DNA of 61,062 nucleotides, filler included, from Dugesia japonica (Eukaryota), in assembly GCA_001938525.1 (NCBI GenBank). It is 6 parts of 6 records of this genome, joined end to end, with 100 filler letters (N's around TTAATTAATTAA, not from the genome) between each part and the next. Parts side by side here need not be neighbours in the genome. Positions count along the whole stretch, not along the records: positions 17,635 to 25,972 come from MQRL01632850.1; positions 26,073 to 37,085 come from MQRL01647376.1; positions 37,186 to 51,483 come from MQRL01587072.1; positions 51,584 to 61,062 come from MQRL01580320.1; 2 more parts are not named here. The stretch is one strand, 5' to 3'. The translations under genes were made by a program, and so were the position numbers. This document shows positions 14,329 to 53,615 of this stretch, one piece after another. The notes below the pieces were generated by a model that made no database searches, had not been told where the DNA came from, and saw nothing but the letters and a program-made list of their open reading frames with translations. The first letter of the stretch is position 1. The number at the start of each line of letters is the position of its first letter.

Positions 14329-14329
<1 letters not shown>

Positions 14330-21784: not shown

Positions 21785-22143
21785 TGCATTCTTTGCTAAA
21801 TAGACTAGCAGCTCTGACCAAGAAGGTAAGGGAAACCAGTGAAGACATCGAGATGTCTTGGAAACTCTATAGGTTAGCGAAGCGCAGATGGGAAGCTGAA
21901 ACGGCCTCAGCAAACGCTAAGGTAAAAAGGTACAAAGCCCAGTGCATCTCCTTTAAAAAAGAAGCTGAAGTGTCCCACTCACAAGAGAGATTTTAAAAAT
22001 CACAAGTCGAATCCATCGCCAAAATCATCCGGTCCCTGCATGACCCTCAAAATAAACTGGTCGCCGATGTTTTGACCTTGAGGAAGGCAATACCCCTCAA
22101 ACCCGTGATGGTTGACAAGGGTACCCAAACATCACGCCTTTGA
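21785..22143 (+). pseudogene. LTR cassette C (copy 1): coiled-coil protein ending in DKGTQT
   Basis: 44/70 identical residues to ORF 53265 by hand alignment; one in-frame TAA where copy 2 has TGG; acceptor tttacag|TG; AATAAA at 22167. Confidence 0.8.
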
Positions 22144-22281
22144 ATGATTAGAACTTGTAAATTATAAATAAAATTCTCTAATTAATTAGTCTTGTTTCAT
22201 GTGCTTATGTTTGTTATAAGAATTCCTTATGTAATCATTACTTGTAGCAATCCGATTATTGCTTAATCTCACTTTATTTCA

Positions 22282-22647
22282 ATGCCACATATCCGGTTCC
22301 TCTCTAGTCTGCGCAGATCCCATAGACTTATCCAGAAACTCCTGCTGGAACGCCATCTAAAACAACAAACTGAACGCGCTTTGCTTCATCACTTGGCGCA
22401 ACGTAATCGATTAATTAAAAAGCTTGATTTGATCGTAAAGAAACAAGAAGAGTCAAATAAACGCACCCAAAAGATTCTCACCAATAAGATCGTTTTCCTC
22501 AAAATATACATCGCCGATCTAGCTACTTGCCTAGAAATTGAGCAATGGTCGCCTTGTCGCAGTGAAGATGATGAGGCAGCATTTGATATGATGGACGACG
22601 AACCCTCCTAATGGCTTGATTCGGGGGCAGTCGGTTTAATAGAATAA
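22282..22647 (+). CDS. LTR cassette D (copy 1): basic N-terminus, coiled coil, acidic tail
   Basis: 109-aa ORF to 22611, with homology continuing past the stop to 22647. Shares LIVKK..E...RT..IL.NKI.FL..YI.DL and DDEAAFD...EP with 53768-54130. Confidence 0.75.
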
Positions 22648-25049
22648 ATTTCTTTTAAAACAATGTTTTAAATTTTGTTTTGGTTTTAGCAAAGGAAAAC
22701 TAATGAACTCAAATATAAAAGTATGCGAGTGTGAACCTCAAATATAGGCTGGAGGTCAACCGTCCATACCGAAAACCTAATAAGGGACATTAGATAAATT
22801 CTTAAAAAGGTCCCCTGAGGGCTGTTTTTCCCCATCCGTGTTTTTATACCACAAACTCAGTTGGGACCCCAACAAATGCATCGGTTAATATTGAAGTTTC
22901 GTTTTTTCAGACAAGTCTTTATTATTGTATTTGTTCTGTTCTTTAGCTAATTGTTTTAATAAAGCTCTTCTATCATCGTACATTTTTAAGCAGTTATTTG
23001 TTTTAATATTTTAAACTAAACAACAATCTATTATGCAGGTCTCGTGTAAATGCCTATTCCATGTTTTGCTTCTTTTATTTTTAGTATTTTGTCTAATATT
23101 AATTTCCTTCCTATTTCATTAATAGCTAACTTTACTGAATTTGGTAAACATGATTTATTAATTAAATTATTTATAAAATCATAAACTATTTTGCTTTGAT
23201 AAGGATTTAAATAAATACCTTTGCATTTAAAAGGTTTTAAAGCTTAAGCATTTCAATTAGCTACCTATTTTAACTACCTTAATTCTTCTTCAATTGTTTT
23301 TCTTTCTAAATCTGTCTTTTTTGCTTTTTCAGCTTTTGAAACAGCACTTTCAACTCCAGCAGCAATACCAGCTACACTAGATAATCTCCCACTTATTGCA
23401 GGACTTAATGATAGTAATGACAATATTCCGCCTTCCTTAATCTCTTCATTGTTATTGTTTGTTTAACTTTTTACCTACCTAATATTTTTTTTGTTTATTA
23501 AAACTTATTTAGATTTATTAAAATGAATTAGTTCACTTAATTGTTCTTCAGTAAGAGAATGAGTAAGAAAATTAGTAACGAATTATTAATTTGAAATAAA
23601 AATAAAACACTATTTAATAATTAAGTTTTACCAAATATTTTTACATGATTATTTATGGAGTCATCTGGTATTGGAAAGAATTTATTATTAATGAAAATGT
23701 TATTAGATGATGATTTAATGGATTATAATAATTTAATATTTTATTCAACAGCTATAAACCAAATTGAATTACAAATAATTAAAAGAAGGAATTGAAAATG
23801 AGTTAACTAAGAAAGCAATTAGAAATATATTTAAGAAAAAAGATTGAATAACAGAAGAAAAAAATACTCCATACAATATTGCTGAATTGTATAAAGAAAA
23901 TATAAATGAATCTGATATTGAAGATAAAGATGAGTATGTTATATATGATTATGATAATAAAAGTAAAACTTGTTAGGTTTATTTATTGGTTTCATTAAAA
24001 TAAACTAAAATAAGACTTTTCATTCAATACTTTATTTAAAATACAAATAATTCTTCTTTGAAATTCTTCTTGCTTTTTGAACGCTTCTTTTCCACACTTG
24101 CCTTTCCCAATTTATATTTTTAAATAATAATAAACTTAAACAAATTTATTATATTTATCAAAAATATATTTTGCAAACATAAAACTTTCGAATTTAAAAT
24201 AATTTAAAAAGAAACCGATAAATAAATATTTTTATAAAGCTTTAAAATTACATTTCAAATTTACATTTAACAATTTAAATTAATAAACATTGATTTTAAT
24301 AAAAACCTAATTGCATTAAATTTTAAAAATATTAAAAAATTTACGAATTACTAAAATTATCTAAAATATTTATATTTATATTTAAGAATATATTTAAAAA
24401 TCAAGATAGAATAATAGAAGAAATAAATAATCCTTATAATATTGCTGAATGGTATAAAGAAAATATAAATGAATCTGATATTGAAAATAAATATGATTAT
24501 GTTATAGATGATCATGATAATGAAAATAAAATTAATAGTAGCTTTTCTAATAAACCAGAATATACTATCTATTGTGATAATCTATAATAAAAGAATCTAG
24601 TTATATCTGATCATGTAAATATTAAAAATCAAGATATACAGTAATCATATTTCACTAGAGGTAGATATAATAACTGTAATGTAATTTATATATCTCAAAC
24701 TTATTATGCTTTAGATAAAATTTCATTTAAAAAACAATTTTAATTGTTTTATATTTTTCAAATAGTGGAAATAAAGATATGGTTTATCAAGATTTAATTA
24801 GTAATTTAGAACCAGATAAATTGTCATAAGATAATTTTATTAGAAATGATTAAAAAGATAAATAAAATTACTAGGATAATCTTTTTTAACCTTAAAAAAA
24901 ACATTTGACTTTATCTGACCAATATCTTGACTTTATACTGGAAATTTTTAAATTTATGTTTCGTCTTATAAACAATTAAATCTGCTTAATAGTCTTAAAA
25001 TTTAAGAAAATTGTGCTTTGTAAATGCAAAATATATCAATTATAACTGA

Positions 25050-25880
25050 AACTCTGCCTCGATGATACTTTTGCTTACGAAAAAATAAGCTTTCGTTAAT
25101 TTGACATACAACATTTTCTCCTCCTCATAATTTTCAGAAAAAAGTTAAAGACATAGGTTACTCATTGTCACGACAAGCTGAGGAAATAATAAATACCACT
25201 CGCGATTATCTGCCCAGAAATAGGGTAGTTTCGCCAGTCTAAAAAATCTTTCTCGTGTCGTATGATATTTGCATTTGGAGTAGCGAAAACTCACATAATA
25301 CATTGCAAACGTGGCACTGTTTGATGTGGGTTTTGAGCTGGAATATTGGACAATTTTTTGGATAATTTTCACACTTTGTTGAAAATTATAACAATATCAT
25401 ATTTTCTGTTTTCAAGAGCAAGGTTTCGGTCTTTTGCTAAAAGTTTATTCAACATAGAAAAACTGGAGTAAGCTGACATTTCATTAAAAAATATTCCATT
25501 AGTGAAATTGATTCCTTTTTCATGTCCATTATTGTCATTAGTATGGCAATCTTTTCTAATAATATAAAAAAGAAAAATTTGACTCTTTGACCAATATTTA
25601 GAGTTAATAATGAGTGTTTTACTCATTATAACATTTTTTACGAGTTTTACTTCTATTTACCCTTTGAAATTAAAAGGATTTTCACTGAATTACAATTCAG
25701 AAAGTTCCTTTAAGACAGACTCGATTGTGTAATCTATACTCTCAGCTAGAATAATAATTTCAGCCAAAACCATATTGCGAGTATGTTTTGAAAAGCTACT
25801 TGAAATTTTTGTGTGGTTGGTTTTTAAAAATCTTTTATTTAGAAAAAGATTTAAATTATAGATGAAAATTTTAAATAACA
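25050..25880 (-). pseudogene. Probable MULE/MuDR transposase relic
   Basis: CHTNDNNGHE(K)GIN resembles the PSTNNGLExxN motif; C-terminal RK..HRGR tail; heavily decayed. Confidence 0.45.
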
Positions 25881-25947
25881 AAAATTATGTTTTAAATTAA
25901 TAAAAGCTTAGATCAAAATTTAGGTTTTAATTATTGATATTGGATAA

Positions 25948-25972
25948 CAATTCGATATTTCGACCTTGTCTT
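25948..25972 (-). ncRNA. 3' half of a minimal hammerhead ribozyme (5' half lost in gap)
   Basis: Minus strand AGAC-AAG-GUC-GAAA-UA-UC-GAAUUG: intact stem II, GAAA core, AUC cleavage triplet and stem I 3' strand. Confidence 0.6.
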
Positions 25973-26287
25973 NNNNNNNNNNNNNNNNNNNNNNNNNNNN
26001 NNNNNNNNNNNNNNNNTTAATTAATTAANNNNNNNNNNNNNNNNNNNNNNNNNNNNNNNNNNNNNNNNNNNNCAAATCACTTCTTATATTAATGTTAAAA
26101 CATAAAGTTAAAAACATAAAGTAAAAGTAAAGTTAAAACATTAAAAGAAAATTAATTTAATCAATAATTATTAATTATTATTTTAAATAAAAGTAAAACT
26201 CATGAAAAAAAAAAGTTTAATTATTATAATTTTCGTTAATTATAATAATTATTGATAATTTGCTAATTACGTAATCTCTAAAGCAGC

Positions 26288-27113
26288 AGGGTTCCANNNN
26301 NNNNNNNNNNNNNNTCCAGGAACACTTTGTAAATATATTTCCAAAAAAATCTTTATAAATATTTTTCGATTCTATTCGAATTCAATTTAAAATTATTTGT
26401 TGATTCCATTGATATTGACTTTAAAAAATGCATTTCCATTCTACTTTGTATGACTCAATTCCATTTCATTTTAATTAACTTTATCAGTACAAAGTATTGT
26501 TATACTACAGTTCTTATTAATATATAAAATTGGCAGGATATTCAAATTCTAAGATTTTAGTATTTGAGAGTTCCGTCAAAAATAGGTAAGATATCATCTC
26601 TACTTCGTCATGAAAGTTTTGAAATAAATCGTGGAAACTGTGCGTCTATAGCCTTAGACGGCTGGAAGAACACTGTTATTGGAGATAAGCACATTTCTAT
26701 AATTCTTTTTTTGTGATGAGCCTGTTTTCATTCAAAGCCATATCGTAGAGTAAGTCTCAGCAGAAAATATTTGTTTTCTTATTGAAGAAACATTAGAATT
26801 CCTTGATTAATATGGTATTATTGTTATTGGGGCAATAACTGATAATATCCGAAATATGATTTCCGCAGTGAACAAATTAAATAGTAAAAGGCCTACAATA
26901 CCGCCATTGAGATGTGTGTCTTATGTCTGCAATCAGATGGTTAAAGATCTTTATAGAAATATTATTTGTTTAAAAGTTACTTTCAAAATACTAAAAGAAT
27001 ATATAAATGAACGAAAAATTTCAAGATTTTTAGCCATTTTGATAAAATGAAAAAAAGAATATCCCAATAATGATCATCTCGGAAAAATCAACATGGCTGT
27101 TGTTTATCTAAAG
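26288..27113 (+). mobile_element. hAT (DUF659-type) transposase relic
   Basis: IALDGWKN..., IVIGAITDNIRNM (TDNAxNM) and LRCVSYVCNQMVKD (CxAHxLNL); CAGGGTTCC terminus at 26288. Confidence 0.75.
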
Positions 27114-30100: not shown

Positions 30101-30639
30101 TTTAAAAGAGGTTAACGTATTATGAATAAATTAAAGAGCCACAAAATCTCTTCGAATAATTTCTATTTGTTAACTTTTAAAATTCAATAATATAGAACAC
30201 GTGACCAGTTAAAATGGAATTTTTATTTTTATTTTCATTTCACATACTACAAAATTTTAACGTATTTTCACTTGCGTGTTAAGACGACAAATAGTTCGGT
30301 TACATAACCATTTAACTTAATTTTCTTATTTTCGGTAAAAAGTATTTACTATTTTACTTTCTTCAATAAAAAATTTACTCTGAAATAATAATAAAACAAA
30401 CGAGTTTACAATTTTGATGGGAGAGTAGCAATTGCCAACAATTTTTGTATATAAATAAATAATATAATATAAATAAAGTTTGTAATTTTCATATTATTAA
30501 TATTTTCTTCAAAATTACTTTTATACAAAACAACTGTACATATTAGGTGTATGTATTAATTTTAACGGGATTTTATACAACATTATCTTCAAAAAAAAAT
30601 GGATAAATACGTCTTCATTATAGAAAGTTATTGCAAATA

Positions 30640-31230
30640 CCTCATTCAAAATATTGTTCATTACTGTACACTACTTTTTCCCATCTTTCTAGTGAATGGT
30701 AGATTTCACGGCGAAATAAAACAACATCTTTTGAGTCTATCCACGATACGAAAATTTTTTGGTATCCTCATAGAAATGCAAGTGCTGCTCATATAAGGCA
30801 AGTGTGACACAATGTGTCATCGATCGGAATAGAGTGAAATCTGTAGGTGCAATATTTAGGAAATACGATGGATGTGGTTTAACTTCTTAGTTAAGTACTT
30901 CTAACGTGTTCTTGAAAATTTATTCAGTATGTGAACAAGCATTGTAGTACTGTAAAATTACTTTGTCTTGCCTTTTCTTGTAATCTGGCCGTTTCTCCTT
31001 TAATGATCTGCTTAATTGCATTAATTTATGTTTGTACAATTCCGCAATGATGGTTTTGTTAGGTTTGTGGAGTTCATAATATACTACCGAAACATAGTCC
31101 TACCGAATGTAAAGTATCAGTTTGGTACCATGAATATTTGGCTATACAATAGATTTTAATAGTTTGTCTGGCCTACTTTGTATTATGGAATAGTATCCTT
31201 TTCTTATCACCTGTTAATAATAGGCTGTTA
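30640..31230 (-). pseudogene. Mariner transposase relic
   Basis: TGDKKRILFHN, PNIHGTKL, VVYYELHKPNKTI, LKEKRP..KRQDKVILQYYNA, HPSYFLNIAPTDF.LFRSM. Confidence 0.85.
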
Positions 31231-32289: not shown

Positions 32290-32454
32290 TAATAATAAAT
32301 ATAATTATAATAATAATAATAATAATAATTATTATTATTATTATTATTATTATTTTTAATATTTTTATAATTATTATTGTTATTTATTATTGTTATTAAT
32401 ATTATTATCATTAATGTTAATTATTAATTGTTATTATTAGTTTTATTGTTATTA

Positions 32455-32506
<52 letters not shown>

Positions 32507-32556
32507 NNNNNNNNNNNNNNNNNNNNNNNNNNNNNNNNNNNNNNNNNNNNNNNNNN

Positions 32557-32625
<69 letters not shown>
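32290..32625. repeat. (AAT)n/(ATT)n microsatellite; poly-N and poly-L ORFs here are artefacts
   Basis: Direct inspection. Confidence 0.95.
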
Positions 32626-32626
<1 letters not shown>

Positions 32627-36740: not shown

Positions 36741-36770
36741 AATTTTCGACTTTCGTCAGGAATTGACTTT
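36741..36770 (-). ncRNA. Degenerate hammerhead motif of the same repeat family
   Basis: Minus strand GUCAAUUC-CUGACGA-AAGUC-GAAA-AUUC; stem II shortened and stem I 3' strand lost. Confidence 0.45.
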
Positions 36771-36893
36771 TAGATTTAATCAATATTTTTTGTGAAAATA
36801 TAAATACTTTTAGAATTAATTTATTTTATTAAATTTTAATTGGTTAATGTATTTAATTATTATAAATTACATTGATTTTAGGTTTATCTTTAC

Positions 36894-37075
36894 CTCAGTA
36901 AATTTTCATGTGTTTTCCTGTGAAGTGTGGAAATGTAATCTGTTCCTAACATTTCCATGTTATATGTTGTTGTTTGATGAAATTTAATGTTTGAGTTGAA
37001 AGTATTTGAGAACTTTACTTTCTTTTTGTTTGAGATGTTCCTTAATTCTTGTTCGGATGATTCTGCATGTTTCAA
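36894..37075 (-). other. Possible host exon of an unidentified gene
   Basis: Open frame ending at a GAG|GTAAAG donor-like site; no recognisable motif. Confidence 0.25.
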
Positions 37076-37185
37076 ATATATATATNNNNNNNNNNNNNNN
37101 NNNNNNNNNNNNNNNNNNNNNNNNNNNNNTTAATTAATTAANNNNNNNNNNNNNNNNNNNNNNNNNNNNNNNNNNNNNNNNNNNN

Positions 37186-39695
37186 TTAAACCAGCTTCTT
37201 TTATACGTTTCAAAACATTGTCAATTCTCTTATAGTGTTCTTTAATAGTTTCGGAAAAACTAAAATATCATCTAAGTAAACCCCTGCTTCCTTCCAATTT
37301 AATGGACCTAAAACCTTATTCATCAATTTTTGAAAAGTAGCAGGGGCAGCTGCGATTCTAAAGGGCATTCTATTAAAATAATATTGTGCACCTTTTGTCG
37401 AAAATGCAGTTTTACATTTTGAGTCATCTGTTAATTCTACTTGATAGTAAGCATTACNNNNNNNNNNNNNNNNNNNNNNNNNNNNNNNNNNNNNNNNNNN
37501 NNNNATTTCTTCAGTGTTTGGAATAGGAAAAATTGGTCTTTCTGTAACTTCATTTAACAATCTATACTCTAAGCAAAGTCGTATTTCATCATTGTCTCCT
37601 TTTTTTACGCAAACCAAAGGAGCATTCCAAGGGAAGTCACATTTACTTATAATTCCATTTATTTCCATTTCTTTTATATTTATCTCAATTTTATCTATTA
37701 AATGATAAGGTTGACGCCTATGATTTATTGCAATTGGTTTACAATTTGTTAATATTGCATGTCTTACAATATTAGTTTTTCCAATATCCCATTTATGTTT
37801 CATTATAATGCTTTCATATTTTTCTAAATTCGTCAAAATCATTTTATCTTTAATATTTTTAATTTTTAATGTTTTCGGTTTAAATTTAATTACATTAACA
37901 GATTCTTTATTAATGGTGAGTTTTATATTAAATTTATTCAATAGATTAATTCCACAAATAACATGTGGTGAGATTTCTTTAGCAACATAAAAACAAATAT
38001 TCTCCATTTTTTCATTAAGCTTTACATTTAAATATACTTTTCCTACACTTTTTTAAAGAACTATTATTCGCACATTTGACATTTATATCAGAATCAATTA
38101 TTGAAACATTTCCTATTCTATTTAATAATTCATATTTAATTACACTAATTTTAGCTCCAGTATCAAGTAAACATGATGTAACAATATTATTAATNNNNNN
38201 NNNNNNNNNNNNNNNNNNNNNNNNNNNNNNNNNNNNNNNNNNNNNNNNNNNNNNNNNNNNNNNNNNNNNNNNNNNNNNNNNNNNNNNNNNNNNNNNNNNN
38301 NNNNNNNNNNNNNNTTACAAAGTTATTTTTATTATCAACAATTATATCAAGCATAACATCATCACACAAATTATTTTCAAGCAATTCAGTATCATACACA
38401 CATTTACAATCATTATCAATCATAAAATTATTGCTCAAATCAAATCTTACATTTTTAATGAATCGCCCCGACAATTTCCTCTCTTGGAAGGGCTTTGGCT
38501 TTTCGGAATTGATCTGTCATAGTTCTGTCATCATCTGTCATCAAATCATCTGAATGTTCATTGTATGCTGCAACATTTTATTGACGATAATCTCTTTTCA
38601 TATCCCGAATCTCATAGCATTGATGTTTAAAATGTCCAGTTCTGTTACACTGGAAACATTTTACATTTGGACAATTAATTCTGACATGTCCTTCTTCTTT
38701 GAATGCCCAACATCGTTTAGATCTTTGTGGAAAATTATTTTCTGTTCTCTTAAATCCTCTTCCGTCAAAACGATTAATGGGTGCATTTGAATTAAAATAT
38801 CTTCTGGAATTCGAATATCGGTTTCTGTTGTTTTCCACTAAATTGTTCCTTTTAAATGTGACTGGTCGATTTGGCTGAAAATCATTAAATTTGGCAGTTG
38901 TTGCATAATTCTTCTTTTCGATTTAACTGCTGCAACATTGACTTCTAGATTAAGCTCCTTCTTGATACTGTACATTTTTGAAATAATATTTTTCATTTCT
39001 TCATTTGTTCTTGATACTCGAATTTTTATTTCTTTTTTAACATCTATATCTTCAACAGCATTTTGTAAAAGAAAACTGACCAGATTTTCATTTGTCAAGT
39101 TATGCCTGATTACATTCTCTGCAAGACGATCAATTTTGTTAAAAAACAAATTTATGGATTCGTTTCCTTTTCGATAATTTAATGCAGATAATAAATCTTT
39201 ACCGATATTTGCTGGTTCTTCAAAAGCTTTTCGGCATCTTTGGGCATAATCTTCAATTGAACCATCCATGGATTCATATCTTTTAACAGCATTTGAGGAA
39301 AGAAATGCTTTTATAAATGTTCTTTGAACAGGTCCTTGAGCCATTGTAAGCTCATAAAATCTTGCTATCTCGATTAAAAATTCTTCCACGCAGTCTCCAA
39401 TATCGAATGTATTTGGAGTTGGAACAAAGGAATTGAGCATATGCCCTTGGGTGGTCGCCATATTAGAAGTCTGTTTCATAACCATAATATTTATTAATAT
39501 GACAATATAAAAGGAGGAATAAATATATATGTAACTATGATTTGAGCAATCAACATACCTCAATCAGCAAACAAACATTGATCTGTTATGCAACACACAA
39601 AATATTTGAACTCTTTGTCAAATATTAATTATGCAGCATACAGTTTTAATAAGCCTTTATAATAAATATAAGATATCCTCACAGTAATTATGACA
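37186..39695 (-). mobile_element. Gypsy/Ty3 LTR retrotransposon, 5' half (LTR about 39461-39695, PBS, gag, protease, RT), truncated by contig join
   Basis: PBS TGGCGACCA overlapping the gag ATG; two CCHC-type knuckles (first degenerate; second CFQCNRTGHFKHQC); protease LLDTGA at about 38160; RT motifs WNAPLVCVKK, KTAFST, MPF.IAAAPATFQ, YLDD; frameshifts. Confidence 0.92.
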
Positions 39696-41016: not shown

Positions 41017-41346
41017 TTTGGGTTATTGGTTGATTTTTTGTAGTTTGAAAAATAAAAAATAAAAGAATATACTTGTAATAATTATACAGTAAAATGGAAA
41101 AGTAAAGTAAAGGAAAGTAAAGTTAAGTAAAGTAAAGTATTTAATTTATTAATAAAATGCCTTCTAATATACAACCAGGTTCAACCGAAGAAGAATTTTT
41201 TAATTTATTATAAAGTTATAATTTTAAAGAAAATTCTGTTTTAGCTTTTGCAAAACAAAATAATGGAAATGAGAAAACAGTAAGAAAACATTTAATGGGA
41301 TTTTGAAAGGTAAAAAATGAAATTAACCAAGTTAAAAACTAACTAA

Positions 41347-42048
41347 ATGGTTTCAAATGATCTGTTGATTTGTCCAAATAATCTTTGTAAAAAGGTTTTT
41401 AAAAATAAATCAGGATTATCAAGTCATATTAGATCAAATTGTTATCGTTTAGATAGAACAAGAATTATGTCTTGTGAAATTTGTAAAATATTTTTTATGA
41501 GAGGAAATAAACGAAAAACCCATTTCTATTTAAAGAAAAATAAAAAAATGGCTATTAAATCATTATTCGATGAATTACCTGGTGAAGAAGCAATTGAATA
41601 TTATCCAGAAATTCAGCGTATTTTTAGAATTTATAAAAACTATGAAATTAAATATTTAAAAGAAAATAAAGTTGAATTAACTAGAAATATTGAAGAGTTA
41701 GAAAGACCAGTAAAAATGATTAATGAATTTCAATTTGAAATCTTGCAAATTGAAACAAAGTATTTTAATTATGGAAAAAGGGTTTTTATTCAAATGAGTG
41801 TAAATAGTAATTATAATAAAGAAGTTAAAGAAATTAGAATTGCAAGTGAAGTTGAAGAAAAAGTTAATGATATTTTAAATCAACTTCAAAGATTTATTGA
41901 AGCTGAATTTGGGTGGAATTTAAATTATATTGTTTATTTTAAAATTAAACTTTCAACTCATAAACAGATTAATGAATTAAAAACCGTTGGTAATAAAAAA
42001 TTATATTATCTTTATGATGATTTTATAGGACCCTTTTGGTTTGTTTGA
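41347..42048 (+). CDS. C2H2-zinc-finger protein with a C-terminal segment resembling the GSGW region of Polinton PolB N-termini
   Basis: CPNNLCKKVFKNKSGLSSHIR; FIEAEFGWNLNYIVYFKIKL. Confidence 0.55.
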   Translation: MVSNDLLICPNNLCKKVFKNKSGLSSHIRSNCYRLDRTRIMSCEICKIFFMRGNKRKTHFYLKKNKKMAIKSLFDELPGEEAIEYYPEIQRIFRIYKNYEIKYLKENKVELTRNIEELERPVKMINEFQFEILQIETKYFNYGKRVFIQMSVNSNYNKEVKEIRIASEVEEKVNDILNQLQRFIEAEFGWNLNYIVYFKIKLSTHKQINELKTVGNKKLYYLYDDFIGPFWFV

Positions 42049-42173
42049 ATTTTTATTTGAAGAGTATTTTATACTTGTTTTAAATTCTACGAACAACAGA
42101 ATATAGAAGTTTGAAGGATGAGTATAAAGAAACCTGTAAAGATTGGGGATTTTTTATTATTTATTATTAGAAA

Positions 42174-43180
42174 ATGGAAACAACAAAAATTAATCTTAAT
42201 AATAATATTAATTTTCAACATTTATTTTTGATAAATGATGTTTTGAGAATTTCACCCTCATCTGGAACAATTAATAATTTAATGTCTTCTGGAGATATAA
42301 CTTTTCAATCTTCAAATCCATTAGACATTTATAATTCAATGTTATATTTTAAAGTTAAATTAGAATTTGGTGCGGCTAACGCTCATAAAGATAAAATAAA
42401 TTTAGAAAATAATTGGTTTCCAAGTTTATTCAAAACAATGAGATTAACTTTAGGATCTTCAGATGAAGAAATAATTAATGATCCAGGAATTTCATCAACT
42501 GCTACTTTAAAATTAATGAATCTAGAACTACATATCCCAGAATGTAGATTAGTTAAAAAAATGGAAGTAAATCTTTTAGAAAGAATTAACACAAATAAAT
42601 CTATTCAAGTTTCATTTTTAAATAGAATTACNNNNAAAACAACTTTAGATTCAGGAAATTATTATTCAGTTAAACTGAGTAATTTAACTTATAAACCAAG
42701 ATATATATTTATTGAAATAAAAGATTCGGAAATTTCATATCAAAAGAATAATAATTTATTTATTCAACAAAATAGTAAAACTGTAAAAATAAAAGAAGGG
42801 ACTGTTGAAAAAGAAGTTACAACAAAACATTATCTTAAAAGTATTCAAGTACAATTAAACAATACATATTATTTTATAAATGAATGTAAATTTAATATTA
42901 ATAATAATGAAATGATTTTTCCATAGTTAAATTATGTAAATTGTTGTAAAGACTTTTTAACAGAACCACAATTATCTCTTTAAGAATTTTGGGATTTGTA
43001 TCCAATCTTTTGTTCTGATGTTAGTTCCCAGGATCATAAATTAAATATAAATACTGTAGATATAACTTTACATATAACTAAAGATACTGATTTTAAACGG
43101 TATTTATGTTAGTGTATTTTAGAAGAAAAACATATTGAAATGAAATTATCAAATAGTAAAATTGTAATGATTGAAAATAA
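42174..43180 (+). pseudogene. Double-jelly-roll major capsid protein (hexon-like), apparently internally deleted
   Basis: LENNWFPSLF..MRL, LELHIP, KPRYIFI, LKSIQVQLNNTYY and, past the stop at 42926, EFWDLYPIFCSDVSSQ, typical of Polinton/adintovirus MCP. Confidence 0.75.
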
Positions 43181-43243
43181 ACGAGGTGACACTTTTTATT
43201 TAGAGTTTAAGTTTAAAAATAAAATATTTAGATTTTAAATAAA

Positions 43244-44521
43244 ATGGATAAAAATAAATATATTTTTGAAAATTGTAAGAAAATATTACTTAGAAAAAAT
43301 AAAGCTAGACATTTAAGAATTTGTTTAAAGAAAACTGGAGGTGATTTACAATCTTCTAAATTAACTTCAACAATTTTAAAACCATTTACTTGGGAAAAGT
43401 ATCCAGGTGAAAGACATTTGTTTAAACATAATTATACTGGCCCCGGAACAAGATTAGATTCTGAAGGTAAACCAAAACCTGGAGAAGAACCAATCAATAG
43501 AGTAGATGAAGCAGCTTTTAAACATGATTTATCTTATAAAAATGAAAATATTAGAGATAGACATTTAGCTNNNNNNNNNNNNNNNNNNNNNNNNNNNNNN
43601 NNNCCTAATCCTAGTATTTCAGAAAAAATACAAAGAAGTTTAGTAAAATTAGCAATGAAAGGTAAAATCGTTTTAGGTGCTGGCCCTATTATTAAAAGCA
43701 AAGAAAGTAATTTTCAAAATAAAGAAATATTAGCAAACGAACTTCACAAAGAATATAGAAAACCAAAATATTTTCTAAAAGTAACAATAAAAGAAAACAA
43801 TAATACTTAGGGTTGTGATATTATTGATATGGTTAAAAAATCAACTGTGGGTTTTAGATATATTTTAGTTTGTATTGATTTATATTCTAGATTTGGTTTT
43901 TGCATACCAATGAAAAATAAAAACCAAGAATCATTAAAAGATGCTTATGAAAATATATTTGAAGAAAATAATCGAATTCCTGATTATATCTGGTTTGACA
44001 AAGAATCAGCTATTAGATCAAAGTACTTTGATAAATGTATTAAAGAAAATGAAAATAATTTGTATCATACTGAAAACGAAGGTAAATCAGTTTTTGCTGA
44101 AAGATTTATTAGAACTCTAAAAAATAAAATGTGGAAAGATTTTACATTAACAGGAAACCAAAAATGGAATAAAAACTTGTTAGATAAAATTGTAAATGAT
44201 TATAATAATACAATTCATAGTTCTATAAAAACAACCCCAAAAGAAGCTAGTGAAAATCCAGAAAAAATAAAAGAAATAATCGAAGATCATAACCATGAAA
44301 ATGATTCAATATAATTTAAACAGAAATTTAAAATTGAAGATAGAGTTAGATTATTTAAATATAAATTTGAAAAAGGTTTTACAGCTAAATGGACAAGTGA
44401 AATATTTGTTGTAACAAAAGTACATAAAACAAAACCATTTACTTATGAAATTAGTGATTTAGAAAACGAAAAGATCTTGGATAAATTTTATAATAATGAA
44501 CTTCAGAAAACTGTTTTATAA
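43244..44521 (+). pseudogene. Parvovirus-type phospholipase A2 domain fused in frame to rve (DDE) integrase
   Basis: HNYTGPGT (Ca loop), PINRVDEAAFKHDLSY (HD catalytic); same frame continues to ANELHK..NNT*GCDIIDM, CIDLYSRF, IWFDKES, AERFIRTLK, YNNTIHSSIK, FEKGFTAKWTSEIF; two nonsense codons (43808, 44312). Confidence 0.88.
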
Positions 44522-45018
44522 ATTTAAAATTAATAAATTAAAATGAGTGAGCCTGAAGGAACCCATTCTTTTGATTTTCTTTTTAAAGGTGTTTTAAATG
44601 AAGAAACAAAAAAAGCTTTAAAAGAAGATATTAAACAAGAATTAGAAGAAGAAATTAAACAAGAATTAAAAGAAGAAAATAAATACTTAAAGAAAACACT
44701 ATCACCCATCAATAAAAAAACTCCACCGGAATATTTTTGGAAGTGGATAATTGTATGTCATCTGAAGAAGGATATGAAGAAATAGCAATATTAACCAACT
44801 ATTTTAAAAATTTTGATTTTGCTAATATGGATCGATATAGTATAGGTATTTTTGATTTAATAGTAATTAAACTAAAAGATGAATGTATGAGGGGTTCTAT
44901 AGATCTCTTCGATGTAAAAGAATTCTTTGATAAAAAAATAANNNNNNNNNNNNNNNNNNNNNNNNNNNNNNNNNNNNNNNNNNNNNNNNNNAAATCTTAA
45001 TTTTTTTATTAAATAAAA

Positions 45019-45741
45019 ATGTCTCAATTAATCGGTAAAACTTCAACATTGTTAATTTGGAATAAAAATAAAATATCTTTAATAATAAAATCTTTCCCTC
45101 TAATTTTACATTATTAATAATTGGTTCTTCTGGATCTGGTAAAAATGTTTTATTAATGAAAATGTTATTAACTCCTAGTTTTTTAGATTATGATACTTTG
45201 ATAATTTATTCTACAACTATAAATCAATTTGAATTACAATTACTTTATCATGGTTTTGAAAATGGATTAACAAAAGAAGATATTATTTTTATTTTTGAAC
45301 ATCAAAATATAATTTCAAATTCTTTAATATTCCCATTAGAAAAATGTTTCCATAAAAATACTCAAGATAAATACTTGGGATAAATTATCTAAGGATAAAA
45401 AGAATTTTATAGTTTTCGATGATGTTGTTAATGAAAAAAATCAAGACGTTCAAACAAGTTATTTTACTAGAGGAAGACGTGTAAATTGCAACGTAATTTA
45501 TATTTCACAAACTTATTTCAGTTTGGATAAAAACTCTATTAGAAATAATTCCAACTGTTTTATATTTTTTAAATTAAATAAAACTGATAAAGATAATGCT
45601 TATTATGATTTATTTAGTAATATATTTTCAAGTAAAATGGAATATGATTATGAAGTTAATTTACATTGGAAAACAAAGTATAATTATTACTATTTAGATA
45701 GAGAAGCTGGAGTTTTAATGGAAGATTTATTTGAAGAGTGA
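45019..45741 (+). pseudogene. A32/FtsK-like genome packaging ATPase
   Basis: Walker A IIGSSGSGKN (about 45118), Walker B IVFDD, RGRRVNCNVIYISQTYF, SIRNNSN; frameshifts. Confidence 0.88.
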
Positions 45742-45858
45742 AAATATCCCACTGGGAAACTGTGGTATTCTACTTCAACTTCAACTTTATGTTAAAATCT
45801 TATATCATTTCTTTTTCTTAAATAATATAATTTTTGGTATATTATTTTTACAAATAAA

Positions 45859-46405
45859 ATGTCTTCAAGAATTAATTGATTTGATAAATTCAAAGAAATT
45901 TAAATCTGTAAAAATTAAAGGAAACAACTATTGGATTGGAAATAAAGTTAAAGAAGAACTAAAAAAGAAAATGACAACTAGTAAAGAACATGAAGGTGGA
46001 TTTGCTTTCCTCGCAGCAATACCAGCTATAATTGCTGGTTTAGCTTCTACAGCTGGAATTGCAACTGGAATTACATCAACTATTAATAATTCAAGAGATG
46101 CAATTAAAAAGCAAAAAGAAACCGAATTAGTAGAATTACAGAAAAAAGAATTTATTGACATTCATGACCAAAGGGAATTAGAAAATAAAATTAAAAAAGA
46201 AAATGAAATTGAATTATTAGATAAAGATATTGCTTAAAAGAAACAAGGAAGTGGACTTTACTTAAAACCTTATTAAGGAAGTTCAATTCATAAATATTTA
46301 AAAAATATTTTAGATAATTCAGAATTGAAAATGATAACTAAAAACTTTAAGAAAGGAGTACAAGTTAAAATAAAAGGTGATGGTTTATATTTAAAACCTT
46401 TTTAA
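45859..46405 (+). pseudogene. Polinton core/membrane-penetration-like protein
   Basis: EGG followed by amphipathic FAFLAAIPAIIAGLASTAGIATGI; downstream GSGLYLKPY and GDGLYLKPF repeats past stops. Confidence 0.65.
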
Positions 46406-47150
46406 AATGGATAGTGAACAAATAACAGAAAGAATAAAACTTTTGAAAGATTTAATTAAAGCTCAAGATAATTATGATAATTTATGTACTGGTAATGTAA
46501 TTGAATCAAGAACTTTACAAAATACTTGAACTATTCAACAACAACCTACTATTAAAGCAATTGAAAATCCCAGAGGGTCCCATACAAACTCATTTGAAAA
46601 AAGAATACCATTCTTTCCTAAAATTAATTTAAATATTAAAAATTTATCATCATTAATTACACCAACATTTGAAATAGAAAATATTGATAATAAAAACTTT
46701 CTAAAGATAAGTTATCNNNNNNNNNNNNTATATTTATTTGAAGAAGATGGAAAGAAATACTTTTTATCTAAAGAAGAAGTAATACCATATTCTAAAGAAG
46801 TAACGAATTTAATTTTGGGAAATGGAAGTAATGATTCAGAAGCAATTGATATTTATTTAAAAAAATTAAAGATTATATTTCCTACTAATTCTAAATATCG
46901 TGATTTATTAACTAGGAAAAAAGAAGTCAATTATTATTAAACCAAGAGTTAATTACTCAAGAAAAATATAATGTTTATAAAAATAAATACTAAAAATAAA
47001 TTTAATTTTACTAAAAAAGAATTATTTTATCTTTCAATAAATATTAACCAAATTTTAGAGAAACATAAACCAATAGAAAGAATTACTTTAATTTTACCAG
47101 CAAATATTTATATTGATAATATTACAATTTCAAATTAATCTTTTAAGAAA

Positions 47151-49964
47151 ATGTCTGAGTTTGAAGAGAATTAACTAACACAAACGAAGAGTGAGAATCA
47201 AAATCCCAAAGGGTCCCATAAATATCCTGATTTAAACGAATATATTTATTCATATTTTGAATATGCAATTAAAAATCAAAAAAACACTATAGAAGATTTA
47301 ACCCTTAACCGCCCAGAAAGCTTTTTATACCAAAACCACCCAGTAGTGTCTAACAGATACTACATAGAAAATCATTTAAATTATAAAAAAAAATAATAAA
47401 ATTTATTTTTATTACAGAGAAGAACACTGTTTGCATTGAATGTTTTTGTAGAATGTTCAAGACAAACATTTTGATTACATGTATTACAACATTGTTTTGA
47501 ATTCCTTGCAATTTTACACGGGCATATGTGACACCTTTTTTTTTACTGCGGATTCTTTTACGATTGAATCTTCAAACTGCTGTTGACTTGTACTTGCAAG
47601 CTGAACTCAGTTAACCCTTTTTTCTCTCGTCTCTGAATGTGAGGACTGACTAATTCGGCTGCTATTTATCGTAGAAAACGTTTTTTCTGTGCTCTTTTCT
47701 TTCCTTCTTTCCATCTAGGATACAATCGTTTTCATATTACAAAAGATGCAATCCTAACAATATCAAGCATATTTTGTAAAAACGCTACGGGCCATCTATT
47801 TGTTTTGTGGCGAGTTGAGTATTCATGTGCTAACTGATCCATTGTATCAACACCACCTTTTGTTTTATTATAATAAATATTAATTTCCGATATTTTTTTG
47901 TTGTTAGCATCAAATTGATTGCTATGGTGCATAGTAGATCATAAAATAACAGCTCTGTTCTTTTTTGGAACATTTGAAACTAAGGTTATTTTTTCAGAAT
48001 CCAAAGATATTAGTTTCAATATTCTGTCCTCTAATTGGCTGAAAATTGTATGGAATACAGCGTTTTTTTTTCTAAGAGTACCGACCATTGTCAGACCATT
48101 ATGAAGTAATGATTGTGCAATCTCAAAGCTTGTAAAATAGTTATCAAATGTAATATTTCTATGCGTTTCATAATATGGTTCACATAATGTAAGTACAACA
48201 TGATGAGATAAATTTTCTGTCTTACTCTGTTCAAGTTTTCCAAGGTATGGTAAACCAGCAAGAGGATAACTTGTTTCACTATCACAAATACACCATACCT
48301 TCATACCATACTTGTCAGGCTTAGATAGCAAGTATTGTTTAAATGATACTCTGCCTTTGAAAGAAATAAGTTGTTCGTCAATCGATAAGTTTTCACCAGG
48401 TAAATAGAACTTTTGAAGCTTAATATTGATATCGGTCAAAATATCTCTGATAGGCACCAATTTATCTTTTGATCTTCTTTGAGACTTTGTAGCTTTATTA
48501 TCAAATCTTAAAAAACGTTGGATATCCGCAAATCTATCTTTACCCATTGTAGCACGAAAAATAGGACAACCAAGCATTAAATCCCAATATTCTGTGAAAT
48601 CCACATTATTATGTTTGTTGACAGCACTAGCAATTAGTAAACCAAAAAATGCTTGCAGCTCAATGGCATCTATTTGNNNNNNNNNNNNNNNNNNNNNNNN
48701 NNNNNNNNNNNNNNNNNNNNNNNNNNNNNNNNNNNNNNNNNNNNNNNNNNNNNNNNNNNNNNNNNNNNNNNNNNNNNNNNNNNNNNNNNNNNNNNNNNNN
48801 NNNNNNNNNNNNNNNNNNNNNNNNNNNNNNNNNNNNNNNNNNNNNNNNNNNNNNNNNNNNNNNNNNNNNNNNNNNNNNNNNNNNNNTTACCTAAATATTG
48901 GACAATTGATTTTGAAACATGTTTCTCTTCTGTTGGGAAATATTCATTGTCACTGCATGTTTGTTCATCACTTTTCTCTGATCCAACCTCTGTAAAATTG
49001 TCTTCAATCTCACTTTCTACTTCTGGGATAAAATCTTGGTTGTCACTGTCAGAATTATCATCATGATTTAAGTCCTGTAATACAGTTAGCAGCTCCTTCT
49101 CAGTTACTACCATATTATTAATAATTTCTAAATGTCTAAATTATTTGATGTTAAGTAATAAGATTTGACTTACATTTTTTACAATATTTATTGAAATTAT
49201 ACTTATAGTTATTTGTGTAAGTAAATTACATCACCAAGATTATTTTATTACTGTTAACCTTATAACACTATATGTTGTGTCTATCAGACACACCTAGGTC
49301 TTTGTGTCACATTTATAACCTTTTAATAATTGCAAAAGTAATAATTTGATTTAAATGACTTCAATTAGTAATTTTGGTTGACAAGACTGTAGTAATAAAT
49401 TAGATGAAGTTTACTTTGTATACATTCAAAACTTTAGATGTACTATGAAAACGAAATTTAAAAAGTGCCTCTGAGTCACTACTGGTCGGTTAAGGGTTAA
49501 AAGAAAAATTATCAGACTTAAGAATTGTTGATTTTGAATCAGATCTTTATTTCATTGATGATAAAATTAACTATTATAAAAAGATTTATAAAAGATGGTC
49601 ACGATTAGATACCTCGATTAGATTTACTGAAATATTTATTGTAACAGTTGTTAGAATAACTGGCATTATATTAATTTCTTTAGAAACCTTTGATGTAGGA
49701 GGATTAATTCCAATTATTTTAACAAGTGTAGTTTCTTGTATTCTAGTAATTGGTACTTTGAATTCATCTTTAATAAAAGCAAAAAAGAATAACTATAAAA
49801 ATTTAATTCATGAATTAGAAACTGTTAAAAATAAGTTATTTTTATTCCAACAAAAAACTTTAAGTGATGGTCTTTTAACAGATGAAGAAATATCAATAAG
49901 CAAAAATATGGTAAAACAAGTAAAAGATTTAATTTCCCATGAAAAATTGAAAATGATTTATTAA
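47151..49964 (+). pseudogene. Two-TM Polinton/adintovirus protein (gasderminX-like), interrupted by piggyBac
   Basis: Removing 47302-49500 restores one frame: ...KYPDLNE..IEDLKEKLSDLR..YYKKIYKRW..TM-TM..KTLSDGLLTDEEI (one early stop near the start). Confidence 0.7.
47302..49496 (-). mobile_element. Full-length (2195-bp) but frameshifted piggyBac transposon
   Basis: TTAA TSDs at 47298-47301 and 49497-49500; 15-bp TIRs CCCTTAACCGCCCAG / CCCTTAACCGACCAG; transposase motifs IDEQL, KPDKYGMK, TFDNYFTS, YNKTKGGVDTMDQ, RWP and a Cys-rich tail. Confidence 0.96.
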
Positions 49965-50049
49965 AAAAACTTGAAGAACAAATCGAAAATCAACAGAAAA
50001 TAATAAATAAATTAAAGAGCTAACTCAAACGAAGAGGAAATGAATTGAT

Positions 50050-50358
50050 TGTGCCCACGGGCACAGGTTTTATATATTTACATTTTAGAAACTGGTGACT
50101 GCAGTAACCACTTTTAGAAATTAACTCAAGCGTTAACCGCTTTTGATTTAAAATTTTTAGATTTAAGAAACTGGTGACTGCAGTAACCACTTTATATTTT
50201 AAGATAAGAATTNGCGAACCANGGTTCGTTTTTTTAATTTTATATTAGAATAAGTAAGAAATAATTTCTATTTTGAATTCCTCATTTTTACCCTTTAAAA
50301 TCCCAGAGGGTTCCATCCTCACAAATTACAATTTAGAAACTGGTGACCGCGGTAACCA
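50050..50358. repeat. Cluster of short palindromes between convergent Polinton genes
   Basis: TGGTGACTGCAGTAACCA x2 (50093, 50172), TGGTGACCGCGGTAACCA (50341), TGTGCCC-AC-GGGCACA (50050), CGAACC-AN-GGTTCG, AAGCG-TTAAC-CGCTT. Confidence 0.85.
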
Positions 50359-50419
50359 CTTTTTTATTTTTATATTAAATTACAATTTAATTTTTGTTTT
50401 AATTTATCTAACCTTAAAT

Positions 50420-51483
50420 GCCACTCACTACAATTAAAACATTTAAATTTTTTTCCATAAGGCTAAGTTCTTACACCATTATCCTCAATTAATCTATTAT
50501 CATCATAAACAGTTAAAGCAATCTTTTTTTGCTCAACTAATTCTATTTCGTGTTTATTTGATTTTAAACTATAATTAGTTCCATAAATATTTTCTTTTGA
50601 GTTTAAAGCTTTATCGAATTCTTTCATACCTATTTCATTAAACTTTGAAACTACTTTATGTCTTTTATCTAATTTATTGTCAAACTCATAAGCATAACTT
50701 TTAGCTTTTATAAAATCACATTTAACTATTTCGTTATTAGATTTTTCATCTTTCATTTGAAATAAATTATTTCCTAATAAACTTTCTACTTTTGTTAAAT
50801 TATTTCTACCTATTATTTCTATAAAAATTGAATCTGTGTCACTATAATGAATTTTATATTTATTTGGAATATTTACATCTAACTGATTATAAATAAAATC
50901 ATAAATAACTTCCTTTGCATATTCTAATATAGTAAAACCAATGTTGGGAAACTTGTTATATTTTAAATTTTATATTTTAGATTGTCTTAAATGAATAGCT
51001 GCTGTTTCTGCGATTCCAGTTTCTGTACATGTAAATATTTTAATAGATCTAAGTTTATTTTTAATGCAAATTTCTGATAATCTCTATCACTTCCAACTAT
51101 TTCTACATTAAACCTTTTCTAATATCTCCTACTGTCTTTCCATAAAAAGCATTATTTAATAATTTAAAGAAATAATCACCAAACACATCGTTTGTTCTTT
51201 TAGATGTGTTTTTTTGATCGATATTAAATTGAATATAATCCTTTAACCAAGGTTTTATTGGAAGAATCATTTTTTGTTGGATCCTTATATTCTTGAATGT
51301 ATTTTTTTAATTTTCATTCCTAGTTTTAAATATAAATCTAATGTACTTCCTAAAACTATATAATTTTCTTTATCAAATTGATTCAAGGTTAATTTAATAT
51401 TTTTCTTGAATAATTTCTTATTAAATGATAATTGATAAGGAGCTAACATTTCTTGAGTTATATTTATTCTATCTGGAGCTAAT
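50420..51483 (-). pseudogene. Protein-primed family B DNA polymerase, C-terminal half
   Basis: FKLLNNAFYGKT (motif B), GFTILEYAKEVIYDFIY, HYSDTDSIF (motif C), KAKSY, KIAL..YDDNR. Confidence 0.92.
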
Positions 51484-52355
51484 NNNNNNNNNNNNNNNNN
51501 NNNNNNNNNNNNNNNNNNNNNNNNNNNTTAATTAATTAANNNNNNNNNNNNNNNNNNNNNNNNNNNNNNNNNNNNNNNNNNNNCCCACAAGATCTAACAT
51601 AGATAACTCAAGAAATATAATTTTAAATGGCTGATTTTATTACAATAAAAACAGATAATACATCAGTGTTAAACCACTGTAATATTATCTCAACAAAATA
51701 ATTTTAATAAAGAAACAAATAATAATCTCAACAGATTTATATTTGTTCTAAACAAATCAAAAATAAATTTTCACATTTAACTACTAATAATTAGCTTTTT
51801 AAATTTTTATTGATGCTTGCTAGGCAACTGCTAATTTAGCTTAAAAATTTAAGTCTGCCAACTACTGATTTTCAATCAGTATTTATACTAAATTTATTGA
51901 GTATGTGTGTTAATACACAGAAAAGACTTTAAGAAAATATTCATTATTACCAAATATAGTAATTATTTATTTCTCGATTGAGAAATATGAGTGAGAAAAA
52001 TATTTATTAAATTGTTGTTATTTTTAGTTACTAAATTTAGTAATTTATAAAATTCTTTTTTTTATTAAATTGAATAATCTTGAATAAATTAATAAATTGA
52101 TAAATTTAAACAAATAGAAATTTTAATAAACTAATTAAAAATTTTATGAATGAATTTATAAACTAAATAAATTAATGTAAGCTTAGCTTACAACCCTAAC
52201 ATTATTCTCATTATTTTCCCAATTAACATCATTATCGCCTTGAGATGATTTATTTGAATATCAATTCCGCTTACTTTTATGAGGGCTCGTTTCCCGTGGT
52301 GGTTGATCTTTCATTATTAATTTACTATTGTAAATTGTTTTTTAGGTCGGAAGAC

Positions 52356-52541
52356 ATGTCAGACATCTTAAGTCAAACTTTAAAATTCATTTGTAGTGAA
52401 AGGGAACGGGTTCGGCGAAAGCAACTGATCGGTCCTATTTTAGCACCATATCGGATTCTGTCGCCTGACAAAACCGATCTGCGATGGTTTGAAGATTTAT
52501 TCCCACTCCAAACTAATGCTGACTTAGATCAGACATATTGA
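52356..52541 (+). CDS. LTR cassette A (copy 2)
   Basis: Acceptor ttttag ends 52345, ATG 52356, stop 52541, AATAAA 52562; homologous to 20876. Confidence 0.7.
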   Translation: MSDILSQTLKFICSERERVRRKQLIGPILAPYRILSPDKTDLRWFEDLFPLQTNADLDQTY

Positions 52542-52659
52542 TTTTCTAACTGTTAGTCTTAAATAAAAACATTAACTTAGCTAATTTTTTTTCTTTTTTG
52601 TATTGAATTTGTTCGAAAACTACCAATTTATAAATTTATATTTAAGTTTATGCTTTTAG

Positions 52660-52998
52660 TGAACGTAATCTGAGAAAGAGTTTTGGATAGGCGTACTCGA
52701 AGAATGATTTTCCGGCCCCATGTCAACCCCCACAATAAGGATGCTGGCATACTGGCCGATCGCACTAACCTATCTCCCGTAGAAGCCTGAGTGGATAGAA
52801 TTCAGGATTTCGGCGAACGTCAGCAGTACTATAACTGTAATGGCCGCCACAAAATTTGGCAACCCGGTTTACCTACCATACTTCCGATTCCCCCATGTAG
52901 TAAGAGAATTTGTCACCAACCTGCTTTGGGGTATTAGGGAGCCTGACACAAATGAAGATGTTGAGAATATGGAAAACGTGACACATGCAACAAACTGA
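52660..52998 (+). pseudogene. LTR cassette B (copy 2)
   Basis: Acceptor ttttag|TG, internal stops and a frameshift, AATAAA 53036; homologous to 21175. Confidence 0.7.
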
Positions 52999-53265
52999 AT
53001 TCAATGTATTTTACTCCATTGCTGTGTTTTCGTTTAATAAATGTCTTCTCGTATGATCGGTTAAAGGAAAATTTATCTTACTTGTCTTAAGTAGTTTATC
53101 TGATTCATCGTTTTATTCATAGGATATAATTATACAATTTTCTTTGTTTCGTCTAATTTATCAATCTTGAATTATAAAACGATGTTTATAATGATATATA
53201 TATTTTTGGTGTCTACATCAATCATCGTAACCACTAACTTGAATAACCTTTTAATTAACCTTCAG

Positions 53266-53615
53266 TGCATTCATCACTCAACCGTTTGGTTACCAGTACT
53301 AAGAATATTCGAGAAAGTAGTAAGGACGTCGAGATGTCCTGGGAATTGTATAAGTTGGCCAAGCGTAAGTCGGAGGCAAACACAGTCAGTGCTATAGCGA
53401 AAGTCAAGCGCTATTGTCCGAAATGCCAGACGTATCGACTCGAAGCGGAAGCTTCACATTCACAGGAACGACTCTGGAAAAAGCAACTAGAATCATTCAC
53501 AGAGGCTATCCAGTCCCTCCATGACCGTGAAAATAAACTGGTCACCGAACTACACAATCGATTGCCAATGGAACCCCTGATGATTGATAAATCCACACCA
53601 ACTTCGCGTTCATGA
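53266..53615 (+). CDS. LTR cassette C (copy 2): intact 116-aa coiled-coil protein
   Basis: Acceptor cttcag|TG, open to stop 53615, AATAAA 53644; ends DKSTPT. Confidence 0.8.

Follow-up and report, generated by a model that had tools for sequence, protein, structure and literature searches.

The window and the 4.3-kb repeat

The window analysed here is a stretch of 61,062 nt from Dugesia japonica (assembly GCA_001938525.1), made up of 6 parts of 6 records that are connected by 100-base joins (each of 44 N, a 12-base spacer and 44 N; 8998-9097, 17535-17634, 25973-26072, 37086-37185 and 51484-51583), across which order and distance are uncertain. It has a GC content of about 25% and is crowded with decayed mobile elements (mariner, hAT-like, gypsy, Polinton-like and piggyBac). 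Two homologous regions in the same orientation, at about 20.9-22.9 kb (copy 1, within MQRL01632850.1, 17,635 to 25,972) and about 52.3-54.4 kb (copy 2, within MQRL01580320.1, 51,584 to 61,062), carry four small cassettes, A to D, which a preliminary description had taken for protein-coding sequence inside two copies of a long terminal repeat (LTR). All features of the two copies given below lie on the + strand.

Copy 1 belongs to a whole, solo-LTR-like element of 4,273 bp (18602..22874; TGTTGGGG…CCCCAACA) with a 9-bp inverted repeat at its ends; a 4-bp target duplication (18598-18601 and 22875-22878), for which a chance 4-mer match is expected at about 1%, lies on either side. The motif TGTTGGGGT stands at 18602, and 22874 and 54375 carry its inverse, i.e. 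the termini are TG…CA and follow the TGTNR pattern. The conserved 3' end of copy 2 (54191..54375) likewise terminates in CCCCAACA; the 5' end of this copy was searched for and not found, and the join at 51484-51583 lies upstream. There is no third copy of the element within the window. In one sequencing run, 3071 contigs matched copy 1, most of them 80-95% alike and 1 crossing the element ends, and in another run the contig depth at the right end of copy 1 falls from 575 to 4.6. Judged by its ends, target duplication and copy number, the 4.3-kb repeat is very probably an LTR, likely of a Gypsy-type retroelement, and copy 1 fits the solo LTR of a many-copy family; the termini and the target duplication thus bear out the earlier view of two LTR copies, with no internal gag-pol found attached.

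The hexamer AAAAAC occurs 30 bases inside all three element ends (18631-18636, 22840-22845 and 54341-54346), beyond the 9-bp inverted repeat, and is possibly a sub-terminal integrase site.

Coding cassettes

Cassette A of copy 1 (20857..21060) follows an acceptor-like site and has its own ATG (20876), an arginine-rich patch, and a stop at 20990-20992; in copy 2 (52346..52541; acceptor-like site, 52345; ATG, 52356; AATAAA, 52562) 61 codons are open. Cassette B has frame breaks or stops in both copies: the frame is broken in copy 1 (21168..21611; acceptor-like site, 21167; AATAAA, 21623), and several in-frame stops interrupt copy 2 (52660..53024; AATAAA, 53036), which starts in phase 1 behind an acceptor AG followed by TG. 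The same AG-then-TG acceptor and phase 1 are found for cassette C in copy 1 (21785..22143; stop, 21994-21996; AATAAA, 22167) and in copy 2 (53266..53615; 115 codons open; AATAAA, 53644). Cassette D of copy 1 (22283..22647; phase 1; AATAAA, 22643) has a degenerate acceptor, then TG, and a frame open to 22608, which ends earlier than in copy 2 (53768..54127; acceptor AG then TG; phase 1; AATAAA, 54140), where the frame is broken close to the 5' end and a stop lies at 53867-53869. The GC content of the cassettes in copy 1 is 42-48%, compared with 17-24% for the spacers between them.

Purifying selection on the cassettes

Aligned between the two copies, the cassettes scored far above shuffled sequence (z of 7.6 for A, 3.9 for B, 13.2 for C and 12.3 for D). 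The preliminary description had reported that the spacers barely align; three of the four are indeed no better than shuffles (z of -0.4, 0.5 and -0.3), and the C-D spacer is marginal (z of 2.0, reached by 6 of 200 shuffles). Its figure of 44/70 identical residues in cassette C is reproduced when counting starts at the Val codon that straddles the acceptor (21784-21786), and becomes 43/70 when counting starts at 21787. Over whole cassettes the identity is 66/114 (C), 56/96 (D) and 20/47 (A), and for B it is 8/15 and 7/16 in two 5' blocks. Within the AKVKRY block (21916-21933 and 53397-53414) all six residues and none of the six third positions are identical, so that every codon differs synonymously, as had been observed, and the inactivating stops of A (20990-20992) and C (21994-21996) are specific to copy 1, the other copy reading through.

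The same pattern holds throughout the cassettes. The proportion of synonymous differences (pS) is 0.72 (A), 0.81 (C) and 0.92 (D), and that of nonsynonymous differences (pN) is 0.34, 0.26 and 0.24, respectively, which amounts to synonymous saturation; identity at codon positions 1, 2 and 3 is 0.66, 0.78 and 0.39 in C and 0.69, 0.78 and 0.39 in D, and identical residues other than Met and Trp are encoded by different codons in 39/63 (C), 38/55 (D) and 11/19 (A) cases. With protein-guided, nearly gap-free codon alignments, the observed pN/pS was reached by 3 (A), 0 (C) and 0 (D) of 2000 column shuffles.

The dN/dS ratio (omega) was fitted pairwise between the copies under the GY94 codon model, with omega = 1 as the null. 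The resulting values are 0.21 for A (p 0.0012; upper limit about 0.6), 0.009 for C (p 2e-18; upper limit about 0.1), 0.078 for D (p 7e-14; upper limit about 0.2), and 0.054 for the 5' blocks of B (31 codons; upper limit 0.25; omega = 1 rejected); pooled over 284 codons, omega is 0.068 (likelihood ratio statistic 157; upper limit 0.15). Saturation of dS makes the point values loose, and the upper limits are the figures to rely on. The variant tables of the mapped runs (40 of 632 and 40 of 131 rows listed) did not enter the dN/dS estimates. Codon-type conservation of B in copy 1 is confined to 21187-21231 and 21240-21287. The earlier statement that all four proteins were kept by selection is therefore shown in part: it stands for A, C, D and the 5' 31 codons of B, and constraint is without support in the 3' two-thirds of B, where the alignment is unreliable.

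The coding frame is the + frame, which had the lowest pN/pS and the fewest stops of all six (in A, tied with an antisense frame). The pN/pS counts of the in-register antisense frame echo those of the + frame (0.49 and 0.40), and under GY94 the antisense omega is 1.14 for C and 2.6 for D. RNA folding of C was no better than that of shuffles in either copy (z of -0.13 and -0.48), and Rfam gave 0 matches on copy 1; neither a minus-strand frame nor RNA structure accounts for the conservation. GC content at third codon positions (GC3) is 0.34-0.51 in the cassettes, compared with 0.23-0.25 in two exons of a host dynein gene and 0.13-0.25 in four other element open reading frames (ORFs) of the window. 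The cassettes are almost certainly real genes under past purifying selection, as had been proposed, and in form they resemble spliced last exons more than free-standing ORFs. The selection acted on the lineages that join the copies while the subfamilies replicated; both present copies are broken and have decayed since insertion.

A further possibility, that the two copies are the paired LTRs of one 35-kb element, was rejected in view of the saturation at synonymous sites and of the separate target duplication around copy 1. The 3' end of the element (22691..22874 in copy 1) was likewise rejected as a fifth cassette. These last 185 bp are the best-conserved DNA of the element (74% nucleotide identity between the copies) and have the highest contig depth (5500-8700); with an omega of 0.80 (p 0.73) they are therefore attributed to a cis-acting LTR end and not to a fifth gene.

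Putative acceptors, start codons and poly(A) signals

Every cassette is preceded by a pyrimidine-rich stretch and an acceptor-like AG (degenerate in D of copy 1) and has a stop at its end. AATAAA occurs within the first 45 nt of 7 of the 8 spacers (0/5000 shuffles), the spacers being four homologous pairs, not eight independent cases, with starts that were set by eye.

In C, the 22 codons ahead of the first ATG are under the same constraint as the remainder (omega 0.008, p 6e-8); translation therefore starts at or before the acceptor, and the frame enters through it. TG directly follows the acceptor in 5 of 6 cases (B of copy 2 and both copies of C and D; B of copy 1 has TA), compared with 25 of 333 acceptor-like sites in the window, and in these five it lies two bases ahead of the conserved frame, i.e. 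in phase 1. Since the TG starts of B, C and D share one phase, these cassettes are likely alternative last exons on one leader.

Upstream of the array, copy 1 has a TATA-like box (19249..19256), which is a candidate promoter, and a candidate 5' splice donor, GTGAGT (19564..19569), preceded by a run of A, so that a putative leader exon would end in A. The summed contig depth is 2710 in 19138-19284 and 71 in the next bin. There are two candidate promoter positions in all, at 19249 and near 22711.

A GC-richer stretch of copy 1 (19660-20017) lies between acceptor-like sites (19659 and 19681) and a donor-like site (20019). It has many stops, a low copy depth and no partner in copy 2, and the AG followed by TG at 19681 opens just 22 codons; it may be a decayed fifth exon.

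Predicted proteins

Cassettes C and D encode basic proteins of 115 and 108-122 residues, respectively, that are predicted to be soluble, long single helices; AlphaFold2 models place the helix at residues 2-98 of C from copy 2 (predicted local distance difference test (pLDDT) 85) and 3-87 of D from copy 1 (pLDDT 80), and D has an acidic, aromatic tail. C and D have no detectable relatedness to each other (probability 0.2%).

When modelled as a homodimer, D gave a parallel, in-register arrangement with a score of 0.38 in three runs (best control, 0.00), a contact agreement of at least 79% and a pLDDT of 76, and the copies agree at 15 of 20 selected interface positions, compared with 44 of 71 overall. 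D is thus predicted to form a parallel coiled-coil dimer. Among microbial test cases, 21 of 30 solved pairs and none of 23 single chains come up to the mark used for such dimers; among eukaryotic pairs, 17 of 29 do (7 of 16 from animals), but only 1 of 7 without a solved relative.

A Pfam search of 128 ORFs of at least 62 codons gave no match for the cassettes. Searches with C were negative by word search (0/2 candidates), with a profile against 1.84 billion representatives (0), in metagenome contigs (0/318 pattern hits) and in phage records (none); its Atlas matches (best, 0.93), to unnamed clusters of low recognition, were set aside. Searches with D retained none of 96 candidates, Atlas values were below 0.8, and a viral fold search gave 0 matches at E<=0.001.

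Interpretation

The reading that we favour, with a probability of roughly 55%, is that of decayed LTR copies in which four constrained exons serve as alternative last exons on a shared leader, each with its own poly(A) signal. The many-copy 4.3-kb repeat, represented by two deeply diverged, decayed copies, would be a Gypsy-type LTR with four small coding exons; splicing of a single transcript would join an upstream donor to one of the four acceptors (A, B, C or D) and so yield four short mRNAs, each cut off at the poly(A) signal of its own exon. The arrangement of one upstream donor serving four acceptors as alternative last exons is, taken alone, somewhat more probable than the whole. A leader ending in A (candidate donor, 19564), when joined to the TG of B, C and D, could create an ATG at the junction, A using its own ATG; this junction-made start is put forward tentatively, and a short upstream peptide exon would serve as an alternative. 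The layout predicts one donor, four acceptors and four poly(A) ends in RNA. Accessory genes of complex retroviruses act in trans on transcription or RNA handling, and by analogy the cassette products might be dimerising proteins that regulate these processes in trans for their own element; a role as regulatory accessory proteins is conceivable but below even odds.

Several observations weigh against this reading. Neither copy has a gag-pol, primer-binding site or polypurine tract attached. In one copy, the acceptors of A and D are divergent or degenerate; for the first 12 codons of D, omega is 0.20 at a p of only 0.09, and the candidate donor and putative leader are known from copy 1 alone. 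The AATAAA count is support and not proof, because the spacer pairs are homologous and the hexamer is present inside C and D too. Heptad bias was significant in 1 of 4 sequences only (3, 40, 48 and 48 of 300 shuffles). There is no homolog that points to a function of the cassettes, the deep searches having covered C and D and not A and B.

RNA adds to these points. Seven runs were mapped (3 of raw RNA, 3 contig sets guessed to be RNA, and 1 contig set of unstated kind). Raw RNA reads lie on the cassettes in both directions at a mean depth below 4 in run X10 and below 1 in runs X9 and X13. No spliced joint to any cassette acceptor is among the 15 and 2 joints listed, at a coverage too thin to exclude one, and 4 contigs of X17, a run guessed to be RNA, span the acceptors of B, C and D colinear with the DNA; unspliced genomic RNA is also expected. 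The rows listed hold no pile of RNA starts or ends, and most of the mapped reads in one mapping set sat on a low-complexity TTA tract. A contig joint with GT..AG ends at 21609-21767 was discounted, as the kind of run is uncertain, unknown letters lie between, and the joint misses the acceptor of C.

How much of this machinery a single LTR would hold is a further matter. It is rather unlikely that the LTR of this invertebrate retroelement is a complete multi-gene unit with promoter, leader, four last exons that each have a poly(A) site, and three start codons made only at the junction; each solo LTR would then suffice by itself to express four new regulatory proteins. Less probable again, but the best of the alternatives, is that the same genes belong to U3 and that only the 3' LTR of a full-length element expresses them, by in-frame splicing to a short peptide exon located 5' or internally in the element, with the solo LTRs mute. 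The last 185 bp, as the most conserved non-coding block, contain a TATA-like or AATAAA hexamer, so that the true promoter and R region may be there, and phase 1 is compatible with any upstream exon that ends one base into a codon. Precedents can be cited: sag and nef occupy the 5' portion of their LTR (PMC2664473), and in three subclades of insect endogenous retroviruses (ERVs) splicing joins env to short peptides from upstream or from Gag (10.1101/2023.08.03.551782). The TATA-like box and the strong donor with its leader ending in A, however, lie upstream of the array and inside the LTR; the block just upstream of the box at 19249 is also common to many copies, and a junction-made ATG is the simpler account of the shared TG start.

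A trans-spliced operon, i.e. a polycistronic RNA that is cut at each poly(A) signal and whose downstream cassettes receive a spliced leader, is improbable. It would need no cis donor, and the order of stop, AATAAA, AT-rich spacer of 100-240 nt and acceptor in the array is like that of operon spacers. The constraint on C, however, reaches the acceptor in phase 1 without an ATG of its own, and a leader ending in a full AUG, as the flatworm spliced leader does, would set a frame other than the conserved one; nor do the best-supported rows listed show a pile of loose ends at the acceptors.

That the repeat is not an LTR is marginally less probable still. It would then be a non-autonomous DNA transposon with Gypsy-like ends, such as a Ginger-like element, or another unit with captured host or viral exons. 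Ginger ends follow TGTNR and are flanked by 4-bp duplications, as far as the accessible part of PMC2836005 describes them, and the repeat has no internal retro-domains attached; its perfect inverted repeat, however, is 9 bp long, compared with 40-270 bp in Ginger1 and 50-180 bp in Ginger2, and its target is neither CCGG/CCGT nor RTATAY. The GC3 of the cassettes, above that of host exons and other elements, points to a foreign origin and suits captured cargo, but passive cargo would not hold an omega below 0.1 up to synonymous saturation, and no host or viral homolog was found. Chance frames whose conservation stems from a gene on the minus strand or from RNA structure can be dismissed with hardly any residual doubt: the missing homologs and Pfam families, the low Atlas recognition values (1485 and 1371) and the near lack of RNA would suit them, but the six-frame test, the shuffles, the sense and antisense GY94 fits, folding z values near 0 and the absence of an Rfam match on copy 1 speak against them, and for A, C and D the frame, shuffle and codon-model tests have already refuted them.

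If the preferred reading of alternative last exons in an LTR is true, an invertebrate retroelement would organise accessory genes as complex retroviruses do. With its solo LTRs, protein genes, splice acceptors and poly(A) signals would be scattered over the genome of the host, and the cassette proteins would be new families without a match in the libraries searched.

Other features of the window

A host gene for an axonemal dynein heavy chain (DNAH10-like) is represented by two exons (14329-14535 and 14571-14699, + strand; identity to P0001, 67% and 81%); a donor follows 14699. A Gypsy gag with zinc knuckle and a reverse transcriptase (36893-39563, - strand) are interrupted by gaps and are unattached to the LTR-like copies. 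Polinton-like pieces extend over 41347-51482 (integrase, A32-like ATPase, phospholipase A2-like domain, DNA polymerase B and zinc finger), with a piggyBac-type transposase (47735-49140, - strand) inserted amid them; related fragments are found at 23582-24808.

Two further GC-richer stretches, at about 4912-6460 (- strand) and 58900-59660 (+ strand), end in CCCCACA and CCCAACA and have a 52-nt terminal block in common (73%); their ORFs are broken and look coiled-coil-like by eye. They may represent another LTR family whose ends are coding and which has no sequence relationship with cassettes A-D.

Comparison with known systems

LTRs are usually treated as non-coding, and the known exceptions cited here carry one ORF, as far as the accessible parts of the sources cited in this section describe them. 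Such ORFs include sag of mouse mammary tumour virus (MMTV), lentiviral nef and several HML ORFs (PMC2664473, PMC11998498). Like the cassettes, sag and nef are coding sequences under selection in a long LTR; they are, however, single ORFs of vertebrate retroviruses, whereas four unrelated exons, each with acceptor and poly(A)-like signal, are found here in an invertebrate-type repeat of 4.3 kb, and no sequence similarity was found between the cassettes and LTR-encoded sag or nef.

Insect ERVs of the springer subclade in Drosophila have an env start codon that is split across a splice junction (10.1101/2023.08.03.551782). The proposed scheme has in common with these ERVs a split start codon or a short peptide exon linked to an ORF further downstream; the insect env is one ORF downstream of pol with the codon split between AU and G, whereas here up to three exons in an LTR would have it split between A and UG. 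Elements of the MDG1 group of Gypsy have two short ORFs, sORF1 and sORF2, and a short transcript that ends after sORF1 (10.1101/2025.03.14.642691). These, too, are accessory ORFs of small size close to the 5' end, and an alternative poly(A) site yields a short transcript, but they lie upstream of gag on unspliced RNA and sORF2 is a membrane protein, whereas soluble helices behind acceptors are predicted here.

The giant Gypsy elements Burro and Ogre have multi-kb LTRs (1.9-6.5 kb in Ogre) and extra ORFs of undescribed function, and the host of Burro is an AT-rich invertebrate (PMC6431247). They are set apart from the present repeat in that the accessory ORFs described in that source are internal or upstream and do not form an exon array in the LTR. 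Burro elements are further marked by a giant polyprotein and a planarian host. The DNA transposons Ginger1 and Ginger2 share TGT…ACA ends and a 4-bp target duplication with the repeat, but they have inverted repeats of 40-270 bp and an integrase-like transposase (PMC2836005); here the perfect inverted repeat is 9 bp, and Pfam found no integrase-like transposase among element ORFs of at least 62 codons.

The accessible parts of PMC8532177, PMC13238120, PMC10787394 and PMC11410931 contain nothing on LTR-encoded ORFs, and a multi-exon array in an LTR is not described in the titles and abstract beginnings found in a search that left subscription papers, Repbase and the original Burro paper outside its scope. 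Coding LTRs as such are already known; the new point is the layout, with four putative, separately terminated exons in one probable LTR.

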